DNA of 64,000 nucleotides from Terriglobia bacterium (GTDB taxonomy: Bacteria > Acidobacteriota > Terriglobia > 20CM-2-55-15), in the NCBI GenBank assembly GCA_965198225.1, contig CBDAOY010000006.1, forward strand, positions 704,001 through 768,000, given 5' to 3'. The position numbers and the translations under genes are program-made. The notes beneath the pieces were generated by a model that was not told the origin of the DNA, made no database searches, and was given only the letters and a program-made list of their open reading frames with translations. Positions 24,693 through 35,511 of the stretch are shown piece after piece; positions within the stretch are counted from its first letter, which is position 1; every line of letters starts with the position of its first letter.

Positions 24693-27062
24693 ATGCTACC
24701 GCGCATGAATCGAATCCGTCATCGAATGCTCGCGATCTTGCTGGTGAGCTCTTTTGTCTCGGTTCCAGGCTTTGCCCAACAGGTAGGCGCGCTCAGCGGG
24801 GCCGACTACGAGCGTGCCGAGCAGTTCCTCGGGTACAACACCAACCCGCTGGTGTTGCGTTCCGGCGTGCGCCCAAGCTGGCTCGAAGACGAGCGCTTCT
24901 GGTACCGCATCACGACAGGGCGCGGAGACGAGTTCATACTCATCGATCCGGCGGATGGAACGCGCGGACCCGCCTTCGATCATGCGCGCCTCGCGTCGGC
25001 CCTCTCCGAGGCCGCAGGCGAGAGCTATGAGGCCTTCGACCTTCCGTTTACCACGTTCGAATTCTCCGAAGCCGGCGGATCCGTCTCGTTTCGCGCCGCT
25101 GAGCGGAACTGGGAATGCGACCTCGAAGCGGGTCGTTGCGTCGAAGACGAAGCGGCCGGACGTTCCCGCGGGGGAAGCCGTGGAGGACGTGGCGGACGCG
25201 GAGGCGGGCCGCCTCCAAGCGTCGCCTCTCCGGACGGCAAGCGTGCAGTGTTCATTCGAGACTGGAATCTCTGGGTCCGGGAAGTTGAGGGCGGGGAAGA
25301 GACCCAACTGACCACCGATGGCATCGAAGACTACGGTTACGCTACCGACAACGCCGGATGGCGGAAGAGCGACCGACCGATCGTGGTGTGGTCCCCGGAT
25401 TCGAAGAAGGTCGCAACTTTTCAGCAGGACCAGCGCAACACGGGCGAGATGTACCTTGTCGACACCTCGGTAGGGCATCCTACCCTCCAGGCGTGGAAGT
25501 ACCCACTGCCTGGGGATGAGGAGATCACGATGATCGAACGGGTCGTCGTCGACGTCGAGAACCCGCGCGTGATCCGCTTCTTGATGGAACGCGATCAGCA
25601 CCGGTCCACGTTGTGTGACGACCTCCCGTGTCGCGGCAGTTGGCGCGATGTGCAGTGGAGCCCGGACAGTTCGGAAGTCGCCTTCGCTTCGACCTCGAGA
25701 GATCACAAGATCACCCGCCTTCGGGTCGCGGGTTCGTCGAGCGGCGAGGTGCGCGACGTTCTCGTCGAGACGGTCGAGACGTTCTTCGAGTCCGGAGACG
25801 GTGCCGTGAACTGGCACTTCCTGCCGGAGTCGAACGAAGTGATCTGGTTCTCTGAGCGCGACAACTGGGGTCACCTCTACCTCTATGATCTCGCGACCGG
25901 ACGCCTGAAGACCCCGATCACGCGCGGCGACGGCAACGTTACACAGGTGTTACGCGTCGACGAAGAAAACCGGATGATCTACTTCGTCGGCGTCGGCCGC
26001 GAAAGCGGACGCAATCCCTATTACCGCCATCTTTACCGCACGGGGTTTGACGGCGGCGACGCAGAGCTGCTTACAGAGGAGGATGCGGATCACAGCATCG
26101 CGGTCTCCCCTTCAGGACGGTTCTTCGTCGACAGCTTTTCGAAACCGGATGTCCCGGCGATCGCCGTGTTACGCGACGCCGATGGCGAACGGCTCATGAC
26201 CCTGGAGGAGGCAGACACAACCCGCCTGACGGCGACGGGTTGGAAGCCTCCGATTCCGTTTGTGGTCAAGGCACGTGACGGCGAGACCGATATCTACGGG
26301 ATGATGTTTCGGCCGACGAACTTCGACCCCAATCGAAAATACCCAATCATCAACAACATCTACCCGGGGCCCCAGTCGGGAAGCATCCGGGGCTGGAGCT
26401 TCTCCCCCGCGCGTGGGGACACCCAGGCGATCGCCGAGCTGGGTTTCATCGTGGTCCAGATCGATGGCATGGGAACTCCGGGTCGCTCGAAAGAGTTCCA
26501 CGAGGCCTACTACGGCGACATGGGCGACAACACGCTGCCCGACCAGGTGACCGGAATGCAACAGCTCGGAGAACGGTATTCCTGGATCGACATCGATCGT
26601 GCCGGAATCTACGGGCATTCCGGCGGCGGCTTCGCGACGAGCGGCGCCATGTTCCACTACCCCGACTTCTTCAAAGTCGGCGTGTCCCAGGCGGGGAACC
26701 ATGACAACCGCGTCTACGAGGACGACTGGGGGGAGAAGTGGCAGGGTCTCCTGACCCGCAACGAAGACGGTACCGACAGCTACGATAACCAGGCGAACCA
26801 GAACTTCGCGAAGAACCTCAAAGGCAAACTGCTGCTCGCCCACGGCACCCTCGACGACAACGTGCCCTACTACAGCACCCTGCTCGTCGTGGACGCGCTG
26901 ATCGAGGCCAACAAGGATTTCGATCTGATCCTGCTGCCGAACCGGCGGCACGGTTTCGGGAACGAGCCCTACATGATGCGACGCCGTTGGGACTACTTCG
27001 TCGAGCACCTCATGGGTGCCCAACCGCCCGACGACTACGAGTTCAGCCCCCCGGTGAATTGA
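24693..27062 (+). CDS. Dipeptidyl peptidase IV-like S9 peptidase
   Basis: Signal peptide, beta-propeller, GHSGGG, HGTLDDNV, RRHG. Confidence 0.92.
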   Translation: MLPRMNRIRHRMLAILLVSSFVSVPGFAQQVGALSGADYERAEQFLGYNTNPLVLRSGVRPSWLEDERFWYRITTGRGDEFILIDPADGTRGPAFDHARLASALSEAAGESYEAFDLPFTTFEFSEAGGSVSFRAAERNWECDLEAGRCVEDEAAGRSRGGSRGGRGGRGGGPPPSVASPDGKRAVFIRDWNLWVREVEGGEETQLTTDGIEDYGYATDNAGWRKSDRPIVVWSPDSKKVATFQQDQRNTGEMYLVDTSVGHPTLQAWKYPLPGDEEITMIERVVVDVENPRVIRFLMERDQHRSTLCDDLPCRGSWRDVQWSPDSSEVAFASTSRDHKITRLRVAGSSSGEVRDVLVETVETFFESGDGAVNWHFLPESNEVIWFSERDNWGHLYLYDLATGRLKTPITRGDGNVTQVLRVDEENRMIYFVGVGRESGRNPYYRHLYRTGFDGGDAELLTEEDADHSIAVSPSGRFFVDSFSKPDVPAIAVLRDADGERLMTLEEADTTRLTATGWKPPIPFVVKARDGETDIYGMMFRPTNFDPNRKYPIINNIYPGPQSGSIRGWSFSPARGDTQAIAELGFIVVQIDGMGTPGRSKEFHEAYYGDMGDNTLPDQVTGMQQLGERYSWIDIDRAGIYGHSGGGFATSGAMFHYPDFFKVGVSQAGNHDNRVYEDDWGEKWQGLLTRNEDGTDSYDNQANQNFAKNLKGKLLLAHGTLDDNVPYYSTLLVVDALIEANKDFDLILLPNRRHGFGNEPYMMRRRWDYFVEHLMGAQPPDDYEFSPPVN

Positions 27063-27089
27063 GTCCAGATTCTCAACGATAGGACTGGC

Positions 27090-27166
27090 AGGCTGCTGAA
27101 AAACTCAGTCTTTCGGCAGTCTGCGGCGATGCTGAGAAAAGCCATGGAAGGCTTTTTCAGCATCCT
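27090..27166. mobile_element. Short MITE-like element with 14-bp terminal inverted repeats
   Basis: AGGCTGCTGAAAAA ... TTTTTCAGCATCCT (13/14 match). Confidence 0.5.
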
Positions 27167-27267: not shown

Positions 27268-28629
27268 ATGCCCTACGTACCCGGATTCGACTACGACATC
27301 TTCGTCAGCTATGCGGCGGGCGACAACGATCAGGGAGTCGTGGAGCAGTTTGTCGCCACGTTAGAAAAGCAGATCTCCGACAATCTGGTAAACGCTTTCT
27401 CGAAGGAGAAAGTCCGGATCTACTTTGACCGCCAGCGGTTGGGCACTCCAGCCGGCGTCAATTGGGAGGAGCACCTGAAGGCGGCGGCGTCTTCTTCGGC
27501 CATTCTGGTTCCGTTGCTGTCGCCGAACTACCTGAGCTCCCATTACTGCAGCAAGGAGCGGGCCTGGTTCGGCACGCAACCGCATGTGGCCCAGGGTTGT
27601 CCATACGCGGTGGCGGGCTGGGTCCCCATTGGCGAGCATCCGCAACCCCGGGAGCTTGAAAAGGCCCAGCGGCATCCGGCCGGGGATTCGTGGCTGGCTC
27701 TGGCGCCGCCCGAAGATCGGCTCGAAAGCTGCAACGAATTTGCCCTCAAGTTGCGCGACGCCCTCGTGGAGATGCGGGCATCGGTAAGCGCCGTGTTCCT
27801 GGGCCCGGCCGCCGAGGGCCGCGGGGCGGCAGTGCGCAGCCGCCTCCGGGATGAGCTCGAGGTATCCGGTCACCGTGTCGTGCCGGTCCCCGACTTCGTG
27901 TACGAAAACGCCGAGGCAGTGCGAGCCGACCTGAATTCGTCGTTGCTTGCGATCCATTTCCCGGGCGATGGCCTGGATCTGGAAGGACTGATGGCCATCG
28001 AAGAGTCCTTCACGTCGGCGCCGAAGACGCTGCTCGTTCAACCCATCGGTTCCGCCCTATCCGACGACGAAGCCGCTCTGCTCGAAGAGATCGATGCCGG
28101 GTTGGTCCGTGGCGGACGCTTCGCTGGAGCGGCGTATTCCAGGTTCGCCGGCAAGAGCGACGATCAGATCTGGGAAGTGGTTCGCCGGGAGGTGCGGGCG
28201 GCCCGGTTCCAGAAAAACAAGAGCGAGTTTGCCGTGGGTATCGCGTGCGAGGCGGGCGATCTTTCCGGTGCGAAGGCCTTGGCGGCGCTCATCGGTGAAT
28301 TGGGCGTGCCGACACGGTATCCGTCGTTTGAAACCGCCACAAGCATCACCGAGAAGTTGAAGGCGCTGCGTGACACCATCACGGAGAGCCCGGCGCTGAT
28401 CTGTTACTGGGCGGCGTCGGCCGGGACCGGTCTCGAAAAGCGGCTGGCGCAGGATGCCCGCCGCCGGTACAAGGCCAGGGCCTGGTATCTGGGTCCGCCC
28501 CTGGATGCTCCGGCCAAAACGAATTTCACCCGGACGAACGAATTGGTCCTCCGCCAGGCGGCGGACACCGCGGATCTGACCGTGCTGGAACCATTCCTCC
28601 GGGAGTTGGGTTGGGAGCCCAAGGCATGA
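27268..28629 (+). CDS. TIR-domain protein with uncharacterised C-terminal region
   Basis: YDIFVSYA, IYFDR, LLSPNYLSSHYCSKE with the putative catalytic Glu. Confidence 0.85.
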   Translation: MPYVPGFDYDIFVSYAAGDNDQGVVEQFVATLEKQISDNLVNAFSKEKVRIYFDRQRLGTPAGVNWEEHLKAAASSSAILVPLLSPNYLSSHYCSKERAWFGTQPHVAQGCPYAVAGWVPIGEHPQPRELEKAQRHPAGDSWLALAPPEDRLESCNEFALKLRDALVEMRASVSAVFLGPAAEGRGAAVRSRLRDELEVSGHRVVPVPDFVYENAEAVRADLNSSLLAIHFPGDGLDLEGLMAIEESFTSAPKTLLVQPIGSALSDDEAALLEEIDAGLVRGGRFAGAAYSRFAGKSDDQIWEVVRREVRAARFQKNKSEFAVGIACEAGDLSGAKALAALIGELGVPTRYPSFETATSITEKLKALRDTITESPALICYWAASAGTGLEKRLAQDARRRYKARAWYLGPPLDAPAKTNFTRTNELVLRQAADTADLTVLEPFLRELGWEPKA

Positions 28630-30507
28630 CGCCGAGCGCGATCCCACATAATCCTTACCCGGGCCTTCGTCCGTTCAAGCCGGAAGAGTCGACCCTCTTT
28701 TTTGGCCGCGACGAGCAGATCGGCGAAGCGCTGGACCGGCTGATGCGGCAGAAGCTGCTGGCCGTGGTGGGTGTGTCGGGCTGTGGCAAGAGCTCGCTGG
28801 TCACCGCGGGTATGGTGCCGGCGCTCGAGATGGGTCTGGCGGGCGACCCGGCTCAGCAGTGGCGGATCGAGATCATGCGGCCCGGCGACGGTCCGTTACG
28901 CGAACTGGAACGCTGTCTGGGCTTTGACAGCGGGCCGCTGGTCGAGCGGACCTATGGCCTCCGGGAGGCTGTGAAAGCGAATCTGCCGGAGGCCCAGAAC
29001 CTGCTGCTGGTTGTGGATCAGTTCGAGGAGATCTTCCCCTTTCGCGATCGTATGCGGGAAGGCGGAGGCACCGAGGCCGATCTCTTCGTCAGTTACATGC
29101 TGAGCGCCGCGCAACAGCCGGCCGCCCGGATCTACATCATTCTCACCATGCGGTCGGACTACCTGGGTGAATGCGCCAGGTTCCATGGACTCCCAGAGGC
29201 CCTGAACGACGGCCAGTATCTGGTGCCGCGCATGACGCGTTCGCAGTTGCAGGAGGCGATCGAGAACCCGCTGGGGGGGGATCGAGAGCGCCGACGGCGA
29301 GTCGGTCGAGTTCCATCCGGGTCTGGTCCAGAAGCTGCTGAACGACTGCGACGAAGAACCCGACAACCTTCCGCTGCTGCAGCATCTGCTGCGCCGGTTG
29401 TTTGAACAGTGGCAGGATGCGGGCGCCCGAGGGCAGATCACGCCGGCGATGGCCAGGGACGTCGGAGAACTCGCCGACGCCCTCAACCAGGATGCGGACA
29501 CGGTTTTCAAGGCGCTTTCGACCGAGCGGCAGGGGATCGCGGAAGTGCTCTTCCGCCGGATTACGGAATCGCGCCAGCAGGCAGGCGGCGCCGAGGACGA
29601 ACGGCCCGTGCGGCGTCCGCAAACCGTCGCCCGTCTGGCAGAACTGGCGCAAGTACCCGTGTCCGAGCTGCGCGCCGTGGTGGATCCCTTCGACGAGCGG
29701 GGGCTGCTGGTATTGCGGGCGACGGACGAAGGCGACAAGGTCGACCTCCCCCACGAGTGCCTATGCCCGAAGTGGAACCGGCTGCGGCAGTGGATCGAAG
29801 ACGAAGCGCAGGATGCCAAGGCTCTGCGCTTTCTTCGAGACTCGGTCGGCAAGAGCCACCTCACCGGCTCCGCCCTGGCGGAAGCGGTCGGCTGGCAGGA
29901 CGCGGGCCGGCTGAAGGCCGCCTGGGGCGAGCGCTACTTGAGCCGCGAAAGCGTCCGCGAGGTGGGTGCCTGGGTCACCGGGAGTCGGCGCAGGGCCCGG
30001 GCGACTCAAATCATCCTCGCCGTCGCAGCCGTCGCGGCCATCGTAGGCCTGGGAGGGATGGCCTACTACCAGACAGTGATCGCACAGCAACAGGAAGACC
30101 AACTGATCGCTCAGCAACAGCAGTTGTTCGATGCCGCGATCGTCGTCGACGACCAAACGACCCGGGAGGACCAAAAACATCTGTGGTGGATACGCTTTGA
30201 TAACAGTCGAGACCCTGACTACGGCTCGGACATCAACTGGGATGAAGCAATGGCGTACTGCGATCAGCTATCGCTGCTTGACTATCGAGGTTGGCGACTC
30301 CCGACGATCGACGAACTGGTAGCGATCTGGAACCCAGCCACTAGGTCCAGCCGCTTGCCAATGGCGACTCCCGTGTATGCGTGGAGTTCTGATTTGGAAG
30401 GGTCGGGCTCCGCGTGGCTCTTCTTCTTCCACGACGGCTACCGGCTCTCGAGCTCGGTCGTCTCCCCCTACTTCCGCGCCTTGTGCGTGCGCGTTCCGGA
30501 TGAATGA
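28626..30507 (+). CDS. nSTAND1-like ATPase + TM helix + Lcl/DUF1566 (C-type-lectin fold) DGR target; split by a G8 tract at 29273-29280
   Basis: NPYPGLRPF, FFGRD, GVSGCGKSSL, VVDQFEE, MRSDY; after the shift LPLLQHLLRRL, HECL..W.RL..W, TM helix, NWDEAMAYC, WRLPTIDEL, ALCVR. Confidence 0.85.
30398..30500 (+). repeat. DGR variable repeat (VR)
   Basis: Matches TR 31078-31183 with 18 substitutions at TR adenines, 1 non-A mismatch and one 3-nt gap. Confidence 0.92.
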
Positions 30508-30568
30508 TGTGGGTGATTGGGTGATTTGATTATTTCTTTTGTGCAGTCGAACTGAAAAGGTTATCGCG

Positions 30569-30958
30569 ATGGCGCGCTACGAGCACCTGCCGATCTACAA
30601 ACGGACGCTGGACTTGCTGCTCTATTTCGAGAAGATCGTCCCGAAGTTCTCCCGCTACGACAAGTACACCATCGGTACCGACCTGAGAAACACGACGCGA
30701 TCCGTCCTGAAGTTGATTGTTCGCGCCAACAGCAGCCGGGACAAGCGGCCGGTGCTTGAGGAAATCCGCACCGAATTGGAGGAGCTGATGATTCTGGTGC
30801 GCGTGGCCAAAGAGGTCCGGGCGTTCGAGAATCTGAACTCCTATCAGTATTCTGCCGGCGAGATCATAGAGATCAGCCGGCAGAATGAGGGGTGGCTGAG
30901 AAGTCTGGAACGGAAACAACCAGAATCATCCTCTCGATCACAACCGGTAGAGAGATGA
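30569..30958 (+). CDS. avd: DGR accessory protein Avd (four-helix bundle)
   Basis: HLPIYK...FSRYDKYTIGTDLR...EISRQNEGWLR; lies between VR and TR. Confidence 0.85.
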   Translation: MARYEHLPIYKRTLDLLLYFEKIVPKFSRYDKYTIGTDLRNTTRSVLKLIVRANSSRDKRPVLEEIRTELEELMILVRVAKEVRAFENLNSYQYSAGEIIEISRQNEGWLRSLERKQPESSSRSQPVER

Positions 30959-31077
30959 GCGTGTTGACTTCATCATTCTGAGTCCTTCCCGCCCATGTGG
31001 CATATGCATTCAGGGCGTCCTACCTTCGGGCTGGGCGCCCGGTGGCCGGTCTTCGGATCGGACGAAGTGGAAGGATC

Positions 31078-31183
31078 AAGGGTCGGGCTCCGCGTGGAAC
31101 TTCAACTTCAACAACGGCAACCGGAACTCGAACCCGGTCGACAACCGCAACAACAACCGCGCCTTGTGCGTGCGCGTTCCGGA
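31078..31183 (+). repeat. DGR template repeat (TR)
   Basis: 11 AAC codons in the frame homologous to VR; between avd and RT. Confidence 0.92.
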
Positions 31184-31185
31184 GA

Positions 31186-31600
31186 ATGATGCGTTCCCTG
31201 TTTTCATTCGAAAAGATTCACGAAGCGTACCTGAGCTGCCGCAAAGGCAAGCGCCGGAGCCGCAATGCCCTTCTTTTCGAGGAGCGCCTGGAGGAGAATC
31301 TGTTTCGACTCTCGGGCGAGCTTCAGGCCCGGACTTATCAGCCATCCCCTTCGACCTGCTTCGTGACCGCGAAACCGAAACACCGGGAGATCTTCGCGGC
31401 CGAGTTTCGCGACCGCGTGGTGCACCACCTGATCGTCACCCACCTCGAACCCATCTGGGAACGGATCTTCATCCACGATTCCTACGCGTGCCGGCCCGGT
31501 AAGGAAACGCATCGGGCGGTGTTCCGACTGCAGGAATTCATGCGGCGTGCGACATCGAACGGGACAAGGACTGCGTATTTTCTCCAGGTCGATGTCCGAC
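31186..31600 (+). pseudogene. DGR reverse transcriptase, 3'-truncated
   Basis: AYLSCRKGK, PKHREIFAAEFRDRVVHH, FIHDSYACRPGK, YFLQVDV; RT similarity then stops and no YxDD follows; the frame runs on antisense into the next gene. Confidence 0.85.
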
Positions 31601-31719
31601 CCGGCTCGGCGCCACAGTGGTTCGTATCCGGATTCCGAACTTCGAGGTACTCGAAGGGCGTGAGAACGATGTCGCGGGTCAGAGACCGCGATGGCGGACA
31701 ATGCGCTGGACCCGACCGT

Positions 31720-33327
31720 TCATGGGCACCCGACGTCGATGCCCAAGTCAGCGAGTTCGGCCAACGAATCCGCGAGAGACAGCGGGGCCCCGTGAGTTGG
31801 GATGATCGTCAGCGGGACCGCGGAATTGCAGCTTGTATCGATGATGTCAAGGTCACGCAGGCCAGCAAAGAGCGACTCCGGGCCACCGAGGACCAGCGTC
31901 AGCCCAAACGCCGCGTTGTAAAGATCCGCCTCGTACACAAACACTTCCCCGCCGGTCTCGACAACAGTAATCAGCATGTCGTCGGCGTGTGGGTTGGCGC
32001 TCAAGTGGTGCGCAGTGATCGTGACGTTGCCATCTTGGATCGAAAACGCGCCGTCCAGCGGGACTTCCTCTACATCCGGCACTACGCCCGCAGCAGCCAG
32101 GGCATCCGGACGAATGGTCGACTCCGAAGTCAAGACGTCGTCCCAGAACCCGCTCACACCGTTGCCAACGATTGCCCTCGCTCCCGCGGCTACCAGAGAT
32201 CGAACGCCCGCGGCGTGGTCCTGGTGAAAATGGCTCTGCACGACATGCGAGATGGCGACGCCGGGAAACGTTGCTTCGACCGCATCGACCAGGTTACTTC
32301 CATGTTTCGGCGATCCGGGTGCTTCGACCAGGAGCAGCCCTCGCTCGTATGAAACCGCGATCGAGTTGCCAGTGCTGCTCCCCAGTAGGGTCACACCCGG
32401 CACGATCTCCGACGGCGTCACGGGGGACTCCTCGCCGTAGAAAAAGCCAAGGTTGAAAAATGCATCCTGCACTTGATGGGTCTGCTGGCCGAACGCGAAT
32501 GCGTCGGCGTCCAGCGTCGGGTCGACGGCCTCGGGCGGAAGATCGAAGGTCCCCGCAGGAAAGTCCGGCCCGATTTCGACGGCCGTGCGTGTTTCGTCAT
32601 GCACCAGAGCCCCTCCAGCATAGAGCTCAACGGCACCGGGGAACGCAAGCACCCCCTGCGCTTGCCAGTCCAGGTAGCGGACCTCAATTGAAACGTCGCG
32701 AACCAGGATGTTGTTCTCGACGGTCTCGAGCTTCGAGATGATTCCCGATTCGTCATCCACGAACATGCGGATCTCGGCAACCTTTCCAGCGAAGCTGACA
32801 ATCCGATGCGGCCGGCCGTCGAATTCCCCCGCTCCGCCGTCTCCGATCAGCGCCGGGTCTTGAAGCCCTTCCCGAAGGTAAAAGTGGGGGTTGAACAAGC
32901 GTTGCTGAGTACGCAGCGCGGCGACGTAATGCGACGGCACGGCTCCAGGAGGGCTGAACCCCGCCTGCGCACTCAGCCCACCCACGTCCCCGTTGAGCAC
33001 AATGCTGAAGCTCGCTCGCGGAAACGACTGCAGCGCCTCGAAGAGCGGCGTGCGATCTGTGTCCGTGCGGAGGTTCTCGTTCGCGAGGTCGAACATGTAG
33101 CGCGTTGTGTAGGTGCTCACATCCATCAAACCGCCCGGTCTTGGCGTCTCGTGGTCGATTCTTCGGCTTCCGCGCGCCTCGATCTGCAGTCGCTCGAGGT
33201 CGGTGAGGGCCACCGCTCCGCCGATGGCCTCCACCGCCTGTTCAAACGGGGTCCGCCCGTCGCCCGCCCCGCAACCTCCGGAGAGAAGGCCGGCAAGAGC
33301 AATCATGAGTAAGTATCTGTTCTTCAT
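31720..33327 (-). CDS. Lipoprotein with C-terminal MBL-fold domain
   Basis: LSGGC lipobox, SHFHQDH motif, EADLY, PTHG; resembles 47671-49149. Confidence 0.75.
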   Translation of the reverse strand: MKNRYLLMIALAGLLSGGCGAGDGRTPFEQAVEAIGGAVALTDLERLQIEARGSRRIDHETPRPGGLMDVSTYTTRYMFDLANENLRTDTDRTPLFEALQSFPRASFSIVLNGDVGGLSAQAGFSPPGAVPSHYVAALRTQQRLFNPHFYLREGLQDPALIGDGGAGEFDGRPHRIVSFAGKVAEIRMFVDDESGIISKLETVENNILVRDVSIEVRYLDWQAQGVLAFPGAVELYAGGALVHDETRTAVEIGPDFPAGTFDLPPEAVDPTLDADAFAFGQQTHQVQDAFFNLGFFYGEESPVTPSEIVPGVTLLGSSTGNSIAVSYERGLLLVEAPGSPKHGSNLVDAVEATFPGVAISHVVQSHFHQDHAAGVRSLVAAGARAIVGNGVSGFWDDVLTSESTIRPDALAAAGVVPDVEEVPLDGAFSIQDGNVTITAHHLSANPHADDMLITVVETGGEVFVYEADLYNAAFGLTLVLGGPESLFAGLRDLDIIDTSCNSAVPLTIIPTHGAPLSLADSLAELADLGIDVGCP

Positions 33328-34269: not shown

Positions 34270-35511
34270 ATGCCTAGGATCGACTGGGAAGTCTCGGGGC
34301 AGGTGCAGGTGGAGAATTGGCTCCTCTTCCGTGGAGACGGTGCGGCCAATCTTGCCCCGCTGTCAGGCGTGACCGTGGAGGTTGCAGCGTCGACGAGGTA
34401 CGACGGAGGTTGGAGGCGTTGGGGCCGGACGAAGACGGACGGCGAGGGGCGGTTTCAGCTCCCGCCCAAGAGAAAGTCCGATAAGCGTCGGCGCTTCCGC
34501 GTCCGGGTCTTTCTCGAAGACGACCGACTCCGCGTCGTGAAGTTGAAGGTCGATGGAAAGTTCGGTGTGGCGCCCATCGTCGCTCACAAGGACACCGCGC
34601 CGTACACGAGCCGGAGCTTCCGAAGCGGCCCCCTCGTCGAGTTACCATCGGCGGTTATCCGCGAAGGCGCGACCCGGGCGACCAGAAACCACGCCCGCCG
34701 GGCGAACATCTGGTACGTGCTCAAGACCGTGCAGGACGCGCTGCGGGAGCAAGACCCGTGGCTCGCCTACCTCAAGAAGCTCACCGCCGTCTATCCGACA
34801 ACGGCCACGACGTGGGCTGCGGGAAACAGCGCGAACATTGGTCCGGGGTACTACAAGGTCGGCACGGTCATCCACGAGGCGATCCACGTCTGGGACTACC
34901 AGCACAACACTGGGATGACCAACTGGGTCTGCGCATGGCTGATCGGTGGGACGCACGGACGCCGTGAGCCACCCAGCGTGGCGTTCCACGAGGGCTTCGC
35001 GAGCTGGGCCTCTCGGCAGCTCCTTCACGATCTCTGGGGCCACGGCCAGTACAAGCCCTTCAACAAGAAGCATCTGGACGACGAGCACGACATACGCTCC
35101 CTCTCCGAGCTCGAGAGGAACGACGACGGTGTGATGTCGGTGCTCCGACTTCTCACACACGAGGACCCGTACGGCCTGCTCCTCGGCACTCTGATCGAGG
35201 CGCCAACGAACGACGAATGGGCGGGGAAGATGCGCCGGACGGACCGCAAGCGGCTGGTGTGCCCGAAGGGGCCGATCCTCGACACCTGGGACCTCTTCTC
35301 CGCGTTCCGCGCGAACCGGGCGGCAGGATGGCGTACGAATCTTCAAGTGGGGAAGGACCGCTACGGAGTTCTCCGGTTCATCGAGCGCCTTTCCGACTTC
35401 TATCCGGATCGATTCGGGGATAACGTGAAGGAGGCGCTTCTGAACGTCGTCGATCCGATCCGGACCGACGAGATGTCATCGCTGTGCAGGCGCGCCCGTC
35501 GGGCGAAGTGA
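34270..35511 (+). CDS. Hypothetical basic protein with gluzincin-like metalloprotease motif
   Basis: VIHEAIH plus downstream FHEGFA; N-terminal KTDGEGRF beta-sandwich-like segment. Confidence 0.6.
   Translation: MPRIDWEVSGQVQVENWLLFRGDGAANLAPLSGVTVEVAASTRYDGGWRRWGRTKTDGEGRFQLPPKRKSDKRRRFRVRVFLEDDRLRVVKLKVDGKFGVAPIVAHKDTAPYTSRSFRSGPLVELPSAVIREGATRATRNHARRANIWYVLKTVQDALREQDPWLAYLKKLTAVYPTTATTWAAGNSANIGPGYYKVGTVIHEAIHVWDYQHNTGMTNWVCAWLIGGTHGRREPPSVAFHEGFASWASRQLLHDLWGHGQYKPFNKKHLDDEHDIRSLSELERNDDGVMSVLRLLTHEDPYGLLLGTLIEAPTNDEWAGKMRRTDRKRLVCPKGPILDTWDLFSAFRANRAAGWRTNLQVGKDRYGVLRFIERLSDFYPDRFGDNVKEALLNVVDPIRTDEMSSLCRRARRAK

Follow-up and report, generated by a model that had tools for sequence, protein, structure and literature searches.

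The locus lies within a 64,000-nucleotide stretch of Terriglobia bacterium DNA (the window), where a TIR-domain protein gene is followed by a gene for an nSTAND1 ATPase with a C-terminal lectin domain, and then by avd, TR and the start of a DGR-type RT (Table 1). The initial annotation had interpreted this order as a DGR that hypermutates the receptor domain of a TIR-coupled, membrane-anchored STAND ATPase. The positions that it gave for VR and TR were confirmed, as were the TIR gene and, after the target gene, avd, and profile searches returned Pfam matches to all four expected families, nSTAND1, Lcl_C, TIR_2 and Avd. The TIR stop codon and the ATG of the nSTAND1 gene overlap as ATGA (28626-28629), also as first described.

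Table 1. Features of the locus, in coordinates of the window
Feature	Position	Strand	Basis or place
Two ~40-nt repeat units, side by side, MITE-like ends	27084..27166	.	Spacer 5' of TIR gene
TIR-domain protein gene, intact, 453 aa	27268..28629	+	Pfam TIR_2
Target gene, first open frame: N-terminal nSTAND1 half (P-loop)	28626..29405	+	Pfam nSTAND1
Target gene, second open frame: C-terminal nSTAND1 half, membrane helix, Lcl_C	29257..30507	+	Pfam, hydropathy
G8 homopolymer with +1 frameshift	29273..29280	+	Three-frame translation
VR: last ~35 residues of lectin domain	30398..30500	+	Gapped alignment to TR
avd, intact, 129 aa	30569..30958	+	Pfam bAvd
TR: 106 nt, 26 adenines (23 in core), 11 AAC codons in VR frame	31078..31183	+	Alignment to VR
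DGR-type RT stump, first 137 residues only	31186..31596	+	Homology to P0014-P0016
Post-breakpoint sequence up to convergent gene's stop, no RT homology	31597..31719	.	tblastn, three full-length RTs

The TIR_2 match (PF13676; 39.4 bits against a cut-off of 28, 1e-09) covers residues 11-98 of the TIR protein, which continues through a linker into two more alpha/beta domains. S91, C94 and E97 are invariant across 32 relatives, and we take E97 to be the catalytic glutamate of TIR. A search of the PDB sequences with the TIR-protein profile gave no match at E<=0.01. The AF2 model (mean pLDDT 73), searched as a whole with Foldseek, returned only generic alpha/beta matches (TM 0.14-0.24), with a plant TIR-NLR at E 1.8e-4; in the protein atlas the C-terminal part falls, at a borderline 0.91, among other TIR or DUF4062 clusters. 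PADLOC v2, whose models include Avs and bNACHT, assigned no family at E<=0.001 to the TIR protein or to either STAND half. Upstream of the TIR gene, both repeat units recur at six other places in the same genome (blastn), where they are ~127 nt apart. The stretch that holds them folds into two hairpins. Between 26500 and 34000 there was no Rfam match at E<=1, and promoter and terminator scans gave about as many matches as chance would (1 against 0.9 expected; 5 against 3.8).

The target had been described as one nSTAND1-TM-Lcl gene; its domains and membrane helix are all present, but they occupy two reading frames, broken at a G8 run. The nSTAND1 match (PF20703) covers model positions 1-200 of 379 in the N-half (2.7e-53, 182 bits) and, in a different frame, positions 200-367 in the C-half (1.8e-30, 107 bits), breaking exactly at position 200, where the G8 shift lies. 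A single hydrophobic segment (~29995-30069, residues 247-271 of the second frame) separates nSTAND1 from an Lcl_C domain at ~30157-30492, which covers the full Pfam model (3.9e-13) and outscores FGE-sulfatase. Four K/R residues flank the helix on its N-side and none on its C-side, which predicts a lectin domain outside the membrane, in keeping with the extracytoplasmic receptor first proposed. The best Foldseek match to the AF2 model was the C-terminal domain of Legionella Lcl (8q4e_A, E 4.4e-5), followed by C-type lectin-like chains. Two metagenomic proteins, P0002 (643 aa) and P0003 (638 aa), have the same nSTAND1-TM-Lcl_C layout, a single membrane helix and a C-terminal end in RALCVR, and are 50-52% identical to the target over the C-half; the N-half is 87% identical to that of P0002. 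In contrast to the target, both have an unbroken reading frame. A pattern scan of a collection of genome contigs found no relative of the C-half. Of 401 genomes in the phylum, 28 (its own genome counted) have matches to the Lcl_C part, all of them distant relatives (<=48% identity).

The adenine bias of the TR/VR pair held on formal gapped alignment. Depending on gap placement, 16-17 of the 18 substitutions fall at TR adenines, which account for 24-25 of 103 columns in the alignment (hypergeometric p 1.5e-12 to 4.2e-11, about 1e-11), and the adenine changes are at codon positions 1 and 2 in all cases. The earlier count of 18 altered adenines out of 23 is reached only if a lost AAC codon is included, VR being 3 nt (one codon) shorter than TR. 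One or two differences lie outside adenines: C31134 to T, and G31147 to C, the latter gap dependent. No further TR- or VR-like copy was found in the genome. The Avd protein matches bAvd above its cut-off (3.3e-13, 50.5 bits against 40) and the NCBIfam equivalog DivGenRetAVD under its cut-off (2.3e-15, 56.8 bits against 80), and avd is the sole copy in the genome.

An RT had been reported after TR, and a DGR-type RT does start there, 73-76% identical to P0014 (518 aa), P0015 (520 aa) and P0016 at their N-termini; what remains is a stump from which the catalytic core is gone. Homology to P0015 and P0016 ends at residue 137 (~31596), and among the relatives (the best 120 of 299 proteins at E<=1e-5) the closest measure 490-520 aa, so the stump is without ~70% of the length, catalytic motifs included. 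RVT_1 matches it at positions 8-76 of 205 alone, with 19.8 bits against a cut-off of 29.6. The rest of the RT was found nowhere in the 6.4-Mb, 97% complete genome. P0016 is an RT of 334 aa with YVDD, listed on the same 9,563-nt contig as P0013, whose TIR and nSTAND1 parts are 86% and 92% identical to those here; judging from these records, the closest relative kept more of its RT. A DGR-type RT match was found in 2 of 34 genomes of the order, including this one.

The same locus was compared in assembled contigs from four public runs (X1, X2, X4 and X6) of three studies. The interval 28600-32000 is covered without gaps in contigs of X2 and X4, with 0 and 1 other letters, respectively, and the contig pieces of X1 and X6 show no differences. 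The X4 change is a SNP at 29588, which marks X4 as a distinct strain. VR is identical in contigs of all four runs; contigs drop rare variants, and such a comparison may miss a minority of cells that carry different VRs or have kept the RT intact. Three genomes of the same genus lack the locus at the DNA level, with poor synteny, and a DNA search of 30 relatives matched solely the neighbouring peptidase gene.

The TIR-nSTAND1 pair has a wider distribution. A TIR gene stands directly upstream of nSTAND1 in 15/15 close metagenome loci with at least 1.5 kb upstream, in 28/47 distant loci and in both loci on contigs of Bryobacterales (acidobacterial) MAGs, so that the pairing on which the initial annotation relied is conserved. 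In the sensor regions of related loci, 38/59 show a WD40-family match, and none of 80 related loci has avd, RT or a membrane helix with lectin; no DGR was found there. Two-gene loci with TIR and nSTAND1-WD40 (L011, L012, L033-L049, L090) resemble the present one in gene order and close abutment, in the TIR protein (64-72% identical over its full length; 82% in the partial locus L046) and in the nSTAND1 N-half (72-79%; 88% in L046), but their sensor is a cytoplasmic WD40 propeller. Complex prediction for the intact L033 pair scored 0.57 against 0.18 for the best of three controls, with runs sharing at least 53% of contacts and a partner pLDDT of at least 76. Of 80 solved complexes, 58 attain the mark used, as do 2 of 110 mismatched pairs; with a score of 0.60 or under, just 7 of the 80 attain it, along with both mismatched pairs. 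The prediction gives the pairing weak support.

We propose, with a probability of about 0.7, that the locus is the remnant of a DGR-armed TIR/nSTAND1 sensor module and is apparently dead, its VR frozen and drifting. In the intact form, the target would be a single-pass inner-membrane protein with the nSTAND1 ATPase in the cytoplasm and Lcl_C outside, and Avd, TR RNA and RT would act on 23 adenine positions to rewrite the last ~35 lectin residues. A ligand bound on the outside would make the ATPase inside oligomerize, which would switch on the separate TIR protein, presumably an NAD-consuming effector. Here, a deletion or rearrangement would have taken all of the RT past its first 137 residues, and a one-base insertion in the G run would have split the ATPase domain, lesions that probably abolished function. 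Loss of the RT would make rewriting impossible and leave VR frozen; the non-adenine changes and the codon slip in the AAC repeats could instead date from the last retrohoming event. Since the TIR gene, avd and TR remain undamaged, the decay looks recent. The same intact genes also fit a locus still partly in use.

How far the target has decayed depends on the eighth G. With G7 in place of G8 the gene becomes one continuous frame, and homologues read straight through at this site. It is possible, if unlikely, that the eighth G stems from a sequencing error, or from a reversible (phase-variable) or bypassed slip, so that a full-length receptor with a fixed VR still signals to TIR and diversification alone has been lost. 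The lesion is indeed one base in a homopolymer; apart from it, both target halves, like TIR, avd and TR, remain open and well conserved, with the 87% given above for the N-half. The genome is probably long-read based, because it consists of nine large contigs, and a systematic G7-to-G8 miscall may lie behind the frameshift. The L046 contig and P0013 also carry single-base frame breaks, at other sites, which hints that some such breaks are assembly noise. Against this reading, G8 is shared by contigs of all four runs, without indel or length variation, and by a second assembly that carries the X4 SNP, whose protein P0001 is called from a start 3' of the frameshift; the frameshift is therefore not an artefact of one assembly. 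Relatives have no homopolymer at this position, and the run is thus no conserved switch. In a genome-wide census of runs of 7 or more bases, a one-base edit lengthened the frame at 25 of 635 runs against 17-31 of 635 random positions, the controls being as high as the test set.

A more elaborate version, which we regard as improbable, makes the locus a domesticated end state. The DGR cassette would have replaced the WD40 sensor with an outward variable lectin, giving a membrane-spanning, NLR-like receptor that reports periplasmic ligands to a cytoplasmic TIR; loss of the RT would have locked in a useful specificity, and G8 would be an on/off slip-strand switch.

Continued rewriting of VR, whether through the local RT or through one acting in trans, is very improbable, even with a canonical anatomy, a strongly adenine-biased TR/VR pair and intact avd and TR. 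The stump has nothing past residue 137, and no substitute DGR-type RT was found among the 34 RT matches of the 97% complete genome: all 34 RVT_1 matches give better scores with group II intron RTs than with the DGR RT P0014, and three tested representatives pass the group II equivalog cut-off (369-419 bits against 300). VR does not vary in the contigs of the three studies, and it departs from TR at non-adenine sites and in length. Together with the frameshift in the target, these observations speak against the present-day hypermutation that had been claimed, while a DGR anatomy directed at the C-terminal lectin of a STAND ATPase stands. Scarcely credible, finally, is that the truncation is a chimera joining two unrelated regions at ~31597, which would account for the abrupt end of RT homology with nothing further: independently built contigs from X1 (record 5), X2 (record 9), X4 (record 15) and X6 (record 29) all bridge the junction, and we rejected it.

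The DGR of Bordetella phage BPP-1 (Mtd, bAvd, bRT) is active and varies the phage tail-fibre receptor-binding protein. The locus shares with it the order of Avd, TR and RT and adenine-specific VR rewriting at the C-terminus of a C-type lectin fold, but here the target is a cellular membrane STAND ATPase and the RT is truncated. The BPP-1 DGR is described in PMC7159879; conflict systems of STAND NTPase-FGS type (C-type lectin fold) linked to DGRs are the subject of Kaur, Iyer, Burroughs and Aravind (eLife 2021, PMC8195603), who introduced the name nSTAND1 and, in the passages concerned, propose hypervariable invader sensors with effectors such as TIR. As presented there, those systems likewise have a central STAND NTPase and a C-terminal lectin fold diversified by an RT and a four-helix accessory protein. 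Their effector or adaptor, however, is fused to the NTPase N-terminus, whereas here the TIR protein (453 aa) is encoded separately and the NTPase domain of the target begins at residue 10; their lectin-like NPCBM/FGS sensors are termed "intracellular invader-sensing," whereas this lectin is predicted outside the membrane, matches Lcl_C better than FGE-sulfatase and belongs to an apparently decayed copy.

For Thiohalocapsa PB-PSB1 DGR 3 and DGR 6 and for DGRs of clade 5D, Doré et al. (PNAS 2024, PMC10907252) report targets of nSTAND1 or NACHT type that carry one C-terminal CLec VR each, TIR effectors in some, some targets predicted to be periplasmic, and an RT disrupted or deleted at some loci. 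Those DGRs belong to another phylum, whereas TIR relatives here occur in Bryobacterales MAGs; they have two targets where this one has one, and here no trans-acting RT was found and no VR variation was seen. Minority RT-intact variants are given there for two loci of another organism. Its STAND NTPase carries a lectin fold targeted by the DGR, and an effector gene is adjacent, which makes the locus one of the STAND-lectin-DGR type. Kaur 2021 and Doré 2024 have already published immune-like systems of this type with TIR effectors, to which the locus adds a decayed member. In the literature we found no acidobacterial TIR-nSTAND1-lectin DGR; the architecture and taxon supplements of both papers may hold such cases.

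For annotation, the locus is best recorded as a pseudo-DGR with a truncated RT, the target being probably a pseudogene, and it illustrates that DGR anatomy by itself is no proof of activity. As a remnant, it suggests an order of decay for such loci, with the RT lost first and the target afterwards. The intact proteins P0002 to P0005 would be better subjects for STAND ATPase signalling across a membrane. More broadly, the comparison with its relatives suggests that a conserved TIR-nSTAND1 pair can exchange a cytoplasmic WD40 sensor for a membrane-anchored, DGR-variable lectin.

The window carries five plus-strand elements, flanked on one side by a dipeptidyl-peptidase gene (24693-27062) and on the other by a convergent gene of the metallo-beta-lactamase fold (31720-33327, minus strand). 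The initial annotation described this locus largely correctly. The segment of the target gene that matches Lcl_C also matches FGE-sulfatase, more weakly. The G+C content of avd (55%) and the reverse transcriptase (RT) stump (59%) is lower than that of the TIR (64%) and STAND (64.5%) genes (30569-31596 versus 27268-30507), which would be compatible with an outside origin of the DGR cassette. Directly upstream of the TIR gene (27084-27166), two units of ~40 nt lie 3 nt apart and fold into two hairpins; at six other places in the genome the same units are ~127 nt apart and resemble small MITE ends. A downstream open frame of 413 aa (34270-35511) matched no Pfam family above threshold (DUF6795 only, 0.0085) and had no PADLOC match.

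Features of the locus, with template region (TR) and variable region (VR)
Feature	Position	Strand	Evidence or detail
TIR protein gene	27268-28629	+	453 aa; N-terminal TIR_2, 39.4 bits versus cut-off of 28
Target gene	from 28626	+	start ATG within ATGA overlap; nSTAND1 match, then Lcl_C (3.9e-13) at the end
VR	30398-30500	+	103 nt
avd	30569-30958	+	
TR	31078-31183	+	106 nt
Reverse-transcriptase-like frame	from 31186	+	ATG start

In a Kyte-Doolittle scan, a single hydrophobic segment separates the ATPase from the lectin domain of the target protein, and intact homologues share this arrangement. Four K/R residues stand just before the segment and none after it. Given the positive-inside rule, and because an ATPase has to be on the cytoplasmic side, the lectin domain is expected outside the membrane. 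AlphaFold2 models the last 202 residues (mean pLDDT, 80) as a long helix leading into a compact domain, whose top Foldseek match is the C-terminal domain of Legionella Lcl (8q4e_A; E value, 4.4e-5); the next matches are C-type lectin-like chains, Bd2740, and FGE/EgtB-type folds.

The TR/VR pair proposed in the initial annotation is real and adenine biased. The best gapped alignments contain 18 substitutions, 16 or 17 of them at TR adenines depending on the placement of a 3-nt gap (hypergeometric P, 1.5e-12 to 4.2e-11), and every adenine change falls at codon position 1 or 2. What the earlier comparison left unmentioned is that the two repeats also differ at one or two non-adenines and that one codon is missing from VR within AAC repeats.

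The enzyme expected to drive this exchange is truncated. A search with the RT start returned 299 proteins at an E value of ≤1e-5, and most of the best 120 of these are 490 to 520 aa long. The window's RT start is 73 to 76% identical to three RTs, P0014 (518 aa), P0015 (520 aa), and P0016, and in tblastn its homology to P0015 and P0016 ends at residue 137-138, at ~31596-31599. A formally longer match to P0014 in the same open frame was of low identity and was discounted as homology. The YVDD region of the relatives falls within the missing part, and for these ~380 residues tblastn gave no good match in any part of the genome (6.4 Mb; 9 contigs; 97% complete). The genome has 34 RVT_1 matches, for all of which group II intron RTs outscore P0014; they form 19 groups defined by identical C-terminal 200 residues, and the three representatives tested all exceeded the group II intron equivalog cut-off. 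Several of the groups are multicopy and identical, and the intron load of this genome is unusually heavy. There is one copy of Avd, and no second TR- or VR-like sequence was found in the genome. The working hypermutation system envisaged earlier is unsupported: the RT is broken, and no other DGR RT was found in the 97% complete genome. Many full-length relatives of this DGR RT (~490 to 560 aa; P0029, P0035, P0045, and others) carry, besides RVT_1, a precomputed match to PF01624 (MutS domain I), and the lineage may thus have a distinct domain as its C-terminal extension.

The stretch is present in six public sequencing runs from three studies, and contigs of four (X1, X2, X4, and X6) were compared with the window. 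In X2 and X4, a single contig spans 28600-32000 without gaps, with 0 and 1 other letters, respectively; contig pieces from X1 and X6 show zero differences. The contigs of the four runs, which mask rare variants, showed no indel, and neither VR nor the joint at the RT breakpoint had an alternative form. The RT junction is solid, because these contigs bridge the breakpoint without an alternative joint. The sole single-nucleotide difference, 29588 G>A in X4, recurs in P0001, a protein from another assembly whose gene is called with a start downstream of the frameshift described below. One higher-depth X1 contig (record 8, 84 nt) matches part of TR (31131-31165) with 5 differences and then continues into unlike sequence; it probably stems from the TR or VR of a DGR of some other organism in that sample.

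The target gene is interrupted as well. Frame 0, beginning at 28626, meets a stop at 29405; frame 1 is open between 29257 and 30507; and homologues have an uninterrupted frame across this region. The frame changes within a G8 run (29273-29280), which as G7 would give one continuous frame; the Pfam nSTAND1 match of the two halves breaks at model position 200, and the site is not a homopolymer in relatives. The frameshift is probably real, with the proviso that run platforms are not on record, that the window itself may derive from one of the runs, and that a systematic homopolymer miscall would recur in all runs. A homopolymer census is of no help in judging it, because one-base edits lengthened the frame at 25 of 635 runs of at least 7 bases versus 17 to 31 of 635 random positions. 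The closest metagenome contig, L046 (TIR, 82% identical; nSTAND1 N-terminal half, 88%), carries a one-base frame break too, within a short G run elsewhere in this gene (820-850 of the contig), and P0013, another relative, also appears fused and cut by frame breaks. The main rival, a receptor that is frozen yet still expressed, is unlikely. We favor a recently inactivated DGR-sensor locus, with a probability of about 0.7.

In an alignment with 31 relatives, S91, C94, and E97 of the TIR protein are invariant, presumably the TIR catalytic glutamate motif. Its AF2 model (mean pLDDT, 73) comprises the TIR domain, a disordered linker (residues 109-146), and two more alpha/beta domains; Foldseek matches to the model as a whole were all generic, and neither the TIR nor the STAND protein has a PADLOC model. 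For an intact TIR/nSTAND1 pair from a metagenome locus (L033), complex prediction scored 0.57 versus 0.18 for the best of 3 controls. Of 80 solved complexes, 58 reached this mark, as did 2 of 110 mismatched pairs; those reaching it at 0.60 or below were only 7 of the 80 and both of the mismatches. Runs agreed in at least 53% of contacts, with partner pLDDT of at least 76, and the prediction lends weak support to a possible contact between the two proteins.

Systems of this kind are already known from published descriptions. In the parts of their paper that treat these proteins, Kaur et al. (2021; PMC8195603) named nSTAND1, described STAND NTPase-FGS proteins with effectors such as TIR, in many cases associated with a DGR RT and its four-helix partner, and proposed them to be hypermutating invader sensors. 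The corresponding parts of Doré et al. (2024; PMC10907252) show DGRs targeting nSTAND1/NACHT-CLec proteins, some with a TIR and some with lectin domains in the periplasm, the RT being disrupted or deleted at some loci, and Roux et al. (2021) state that the majority of cellular DGR targets are membrane anchored. Compared with the systems in those parts of Kaur et al. and Doré et al., the window locus is particular in its separate three-domain TIR partner, its Lcl_C lectin type, its probable acidobacterial host (judged by the Bryobacterales MAG relatives of the TIR protein), and its decayed state; this architecture may already be among the supplementary tables of the three papers.

TIR and nSTAND1 form a conserved two-gene module. 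At two loci from Bryobacterales MAG contigs, a 68% identical TIR protein is encoded directly upstream of an nSTAND1-WD40 protein. Among 80 nSTAND1 loci from a metagenome scan, the gene immediately upstream encodes the TIR protein in all 15 close loci that have at least 1.5 kb of upstream sequence and in all 3 close loci that have less; the same is true of 28 of the 47 distant loci whose upstream sequence is long enough. The closest relative, P0013 (TIR, 86% identical; nSTAND1, 92%), and the 334-aa RT P0016 each come from a 9,563-nt contig, from which we infer that the P0013 locus retained more of the RT. Intact proteins of the same build carry Lcl_C (P0002, 643 aa; P0003, 638 aa) or an FGE-sulfatase domain in its place (P0004 and P0005), each with one membrane helix. 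At the DNA level the locus is absent from three same-genus genomes, and a DGR-type RT match occurs in 2 of 34 genomes of the order, the window's own included. The window's Avd, RT stump, and Lcl_C part had matches in 0 of the 80 metagenome loci, while the same RT query detected DGR RTs in 15 of 15 control loci from other phyla, and 38 of 59 scanned sensor regions matched WD40 families. Therefore, the lectin-plus-DGR sensor is a rare swap within this clade.
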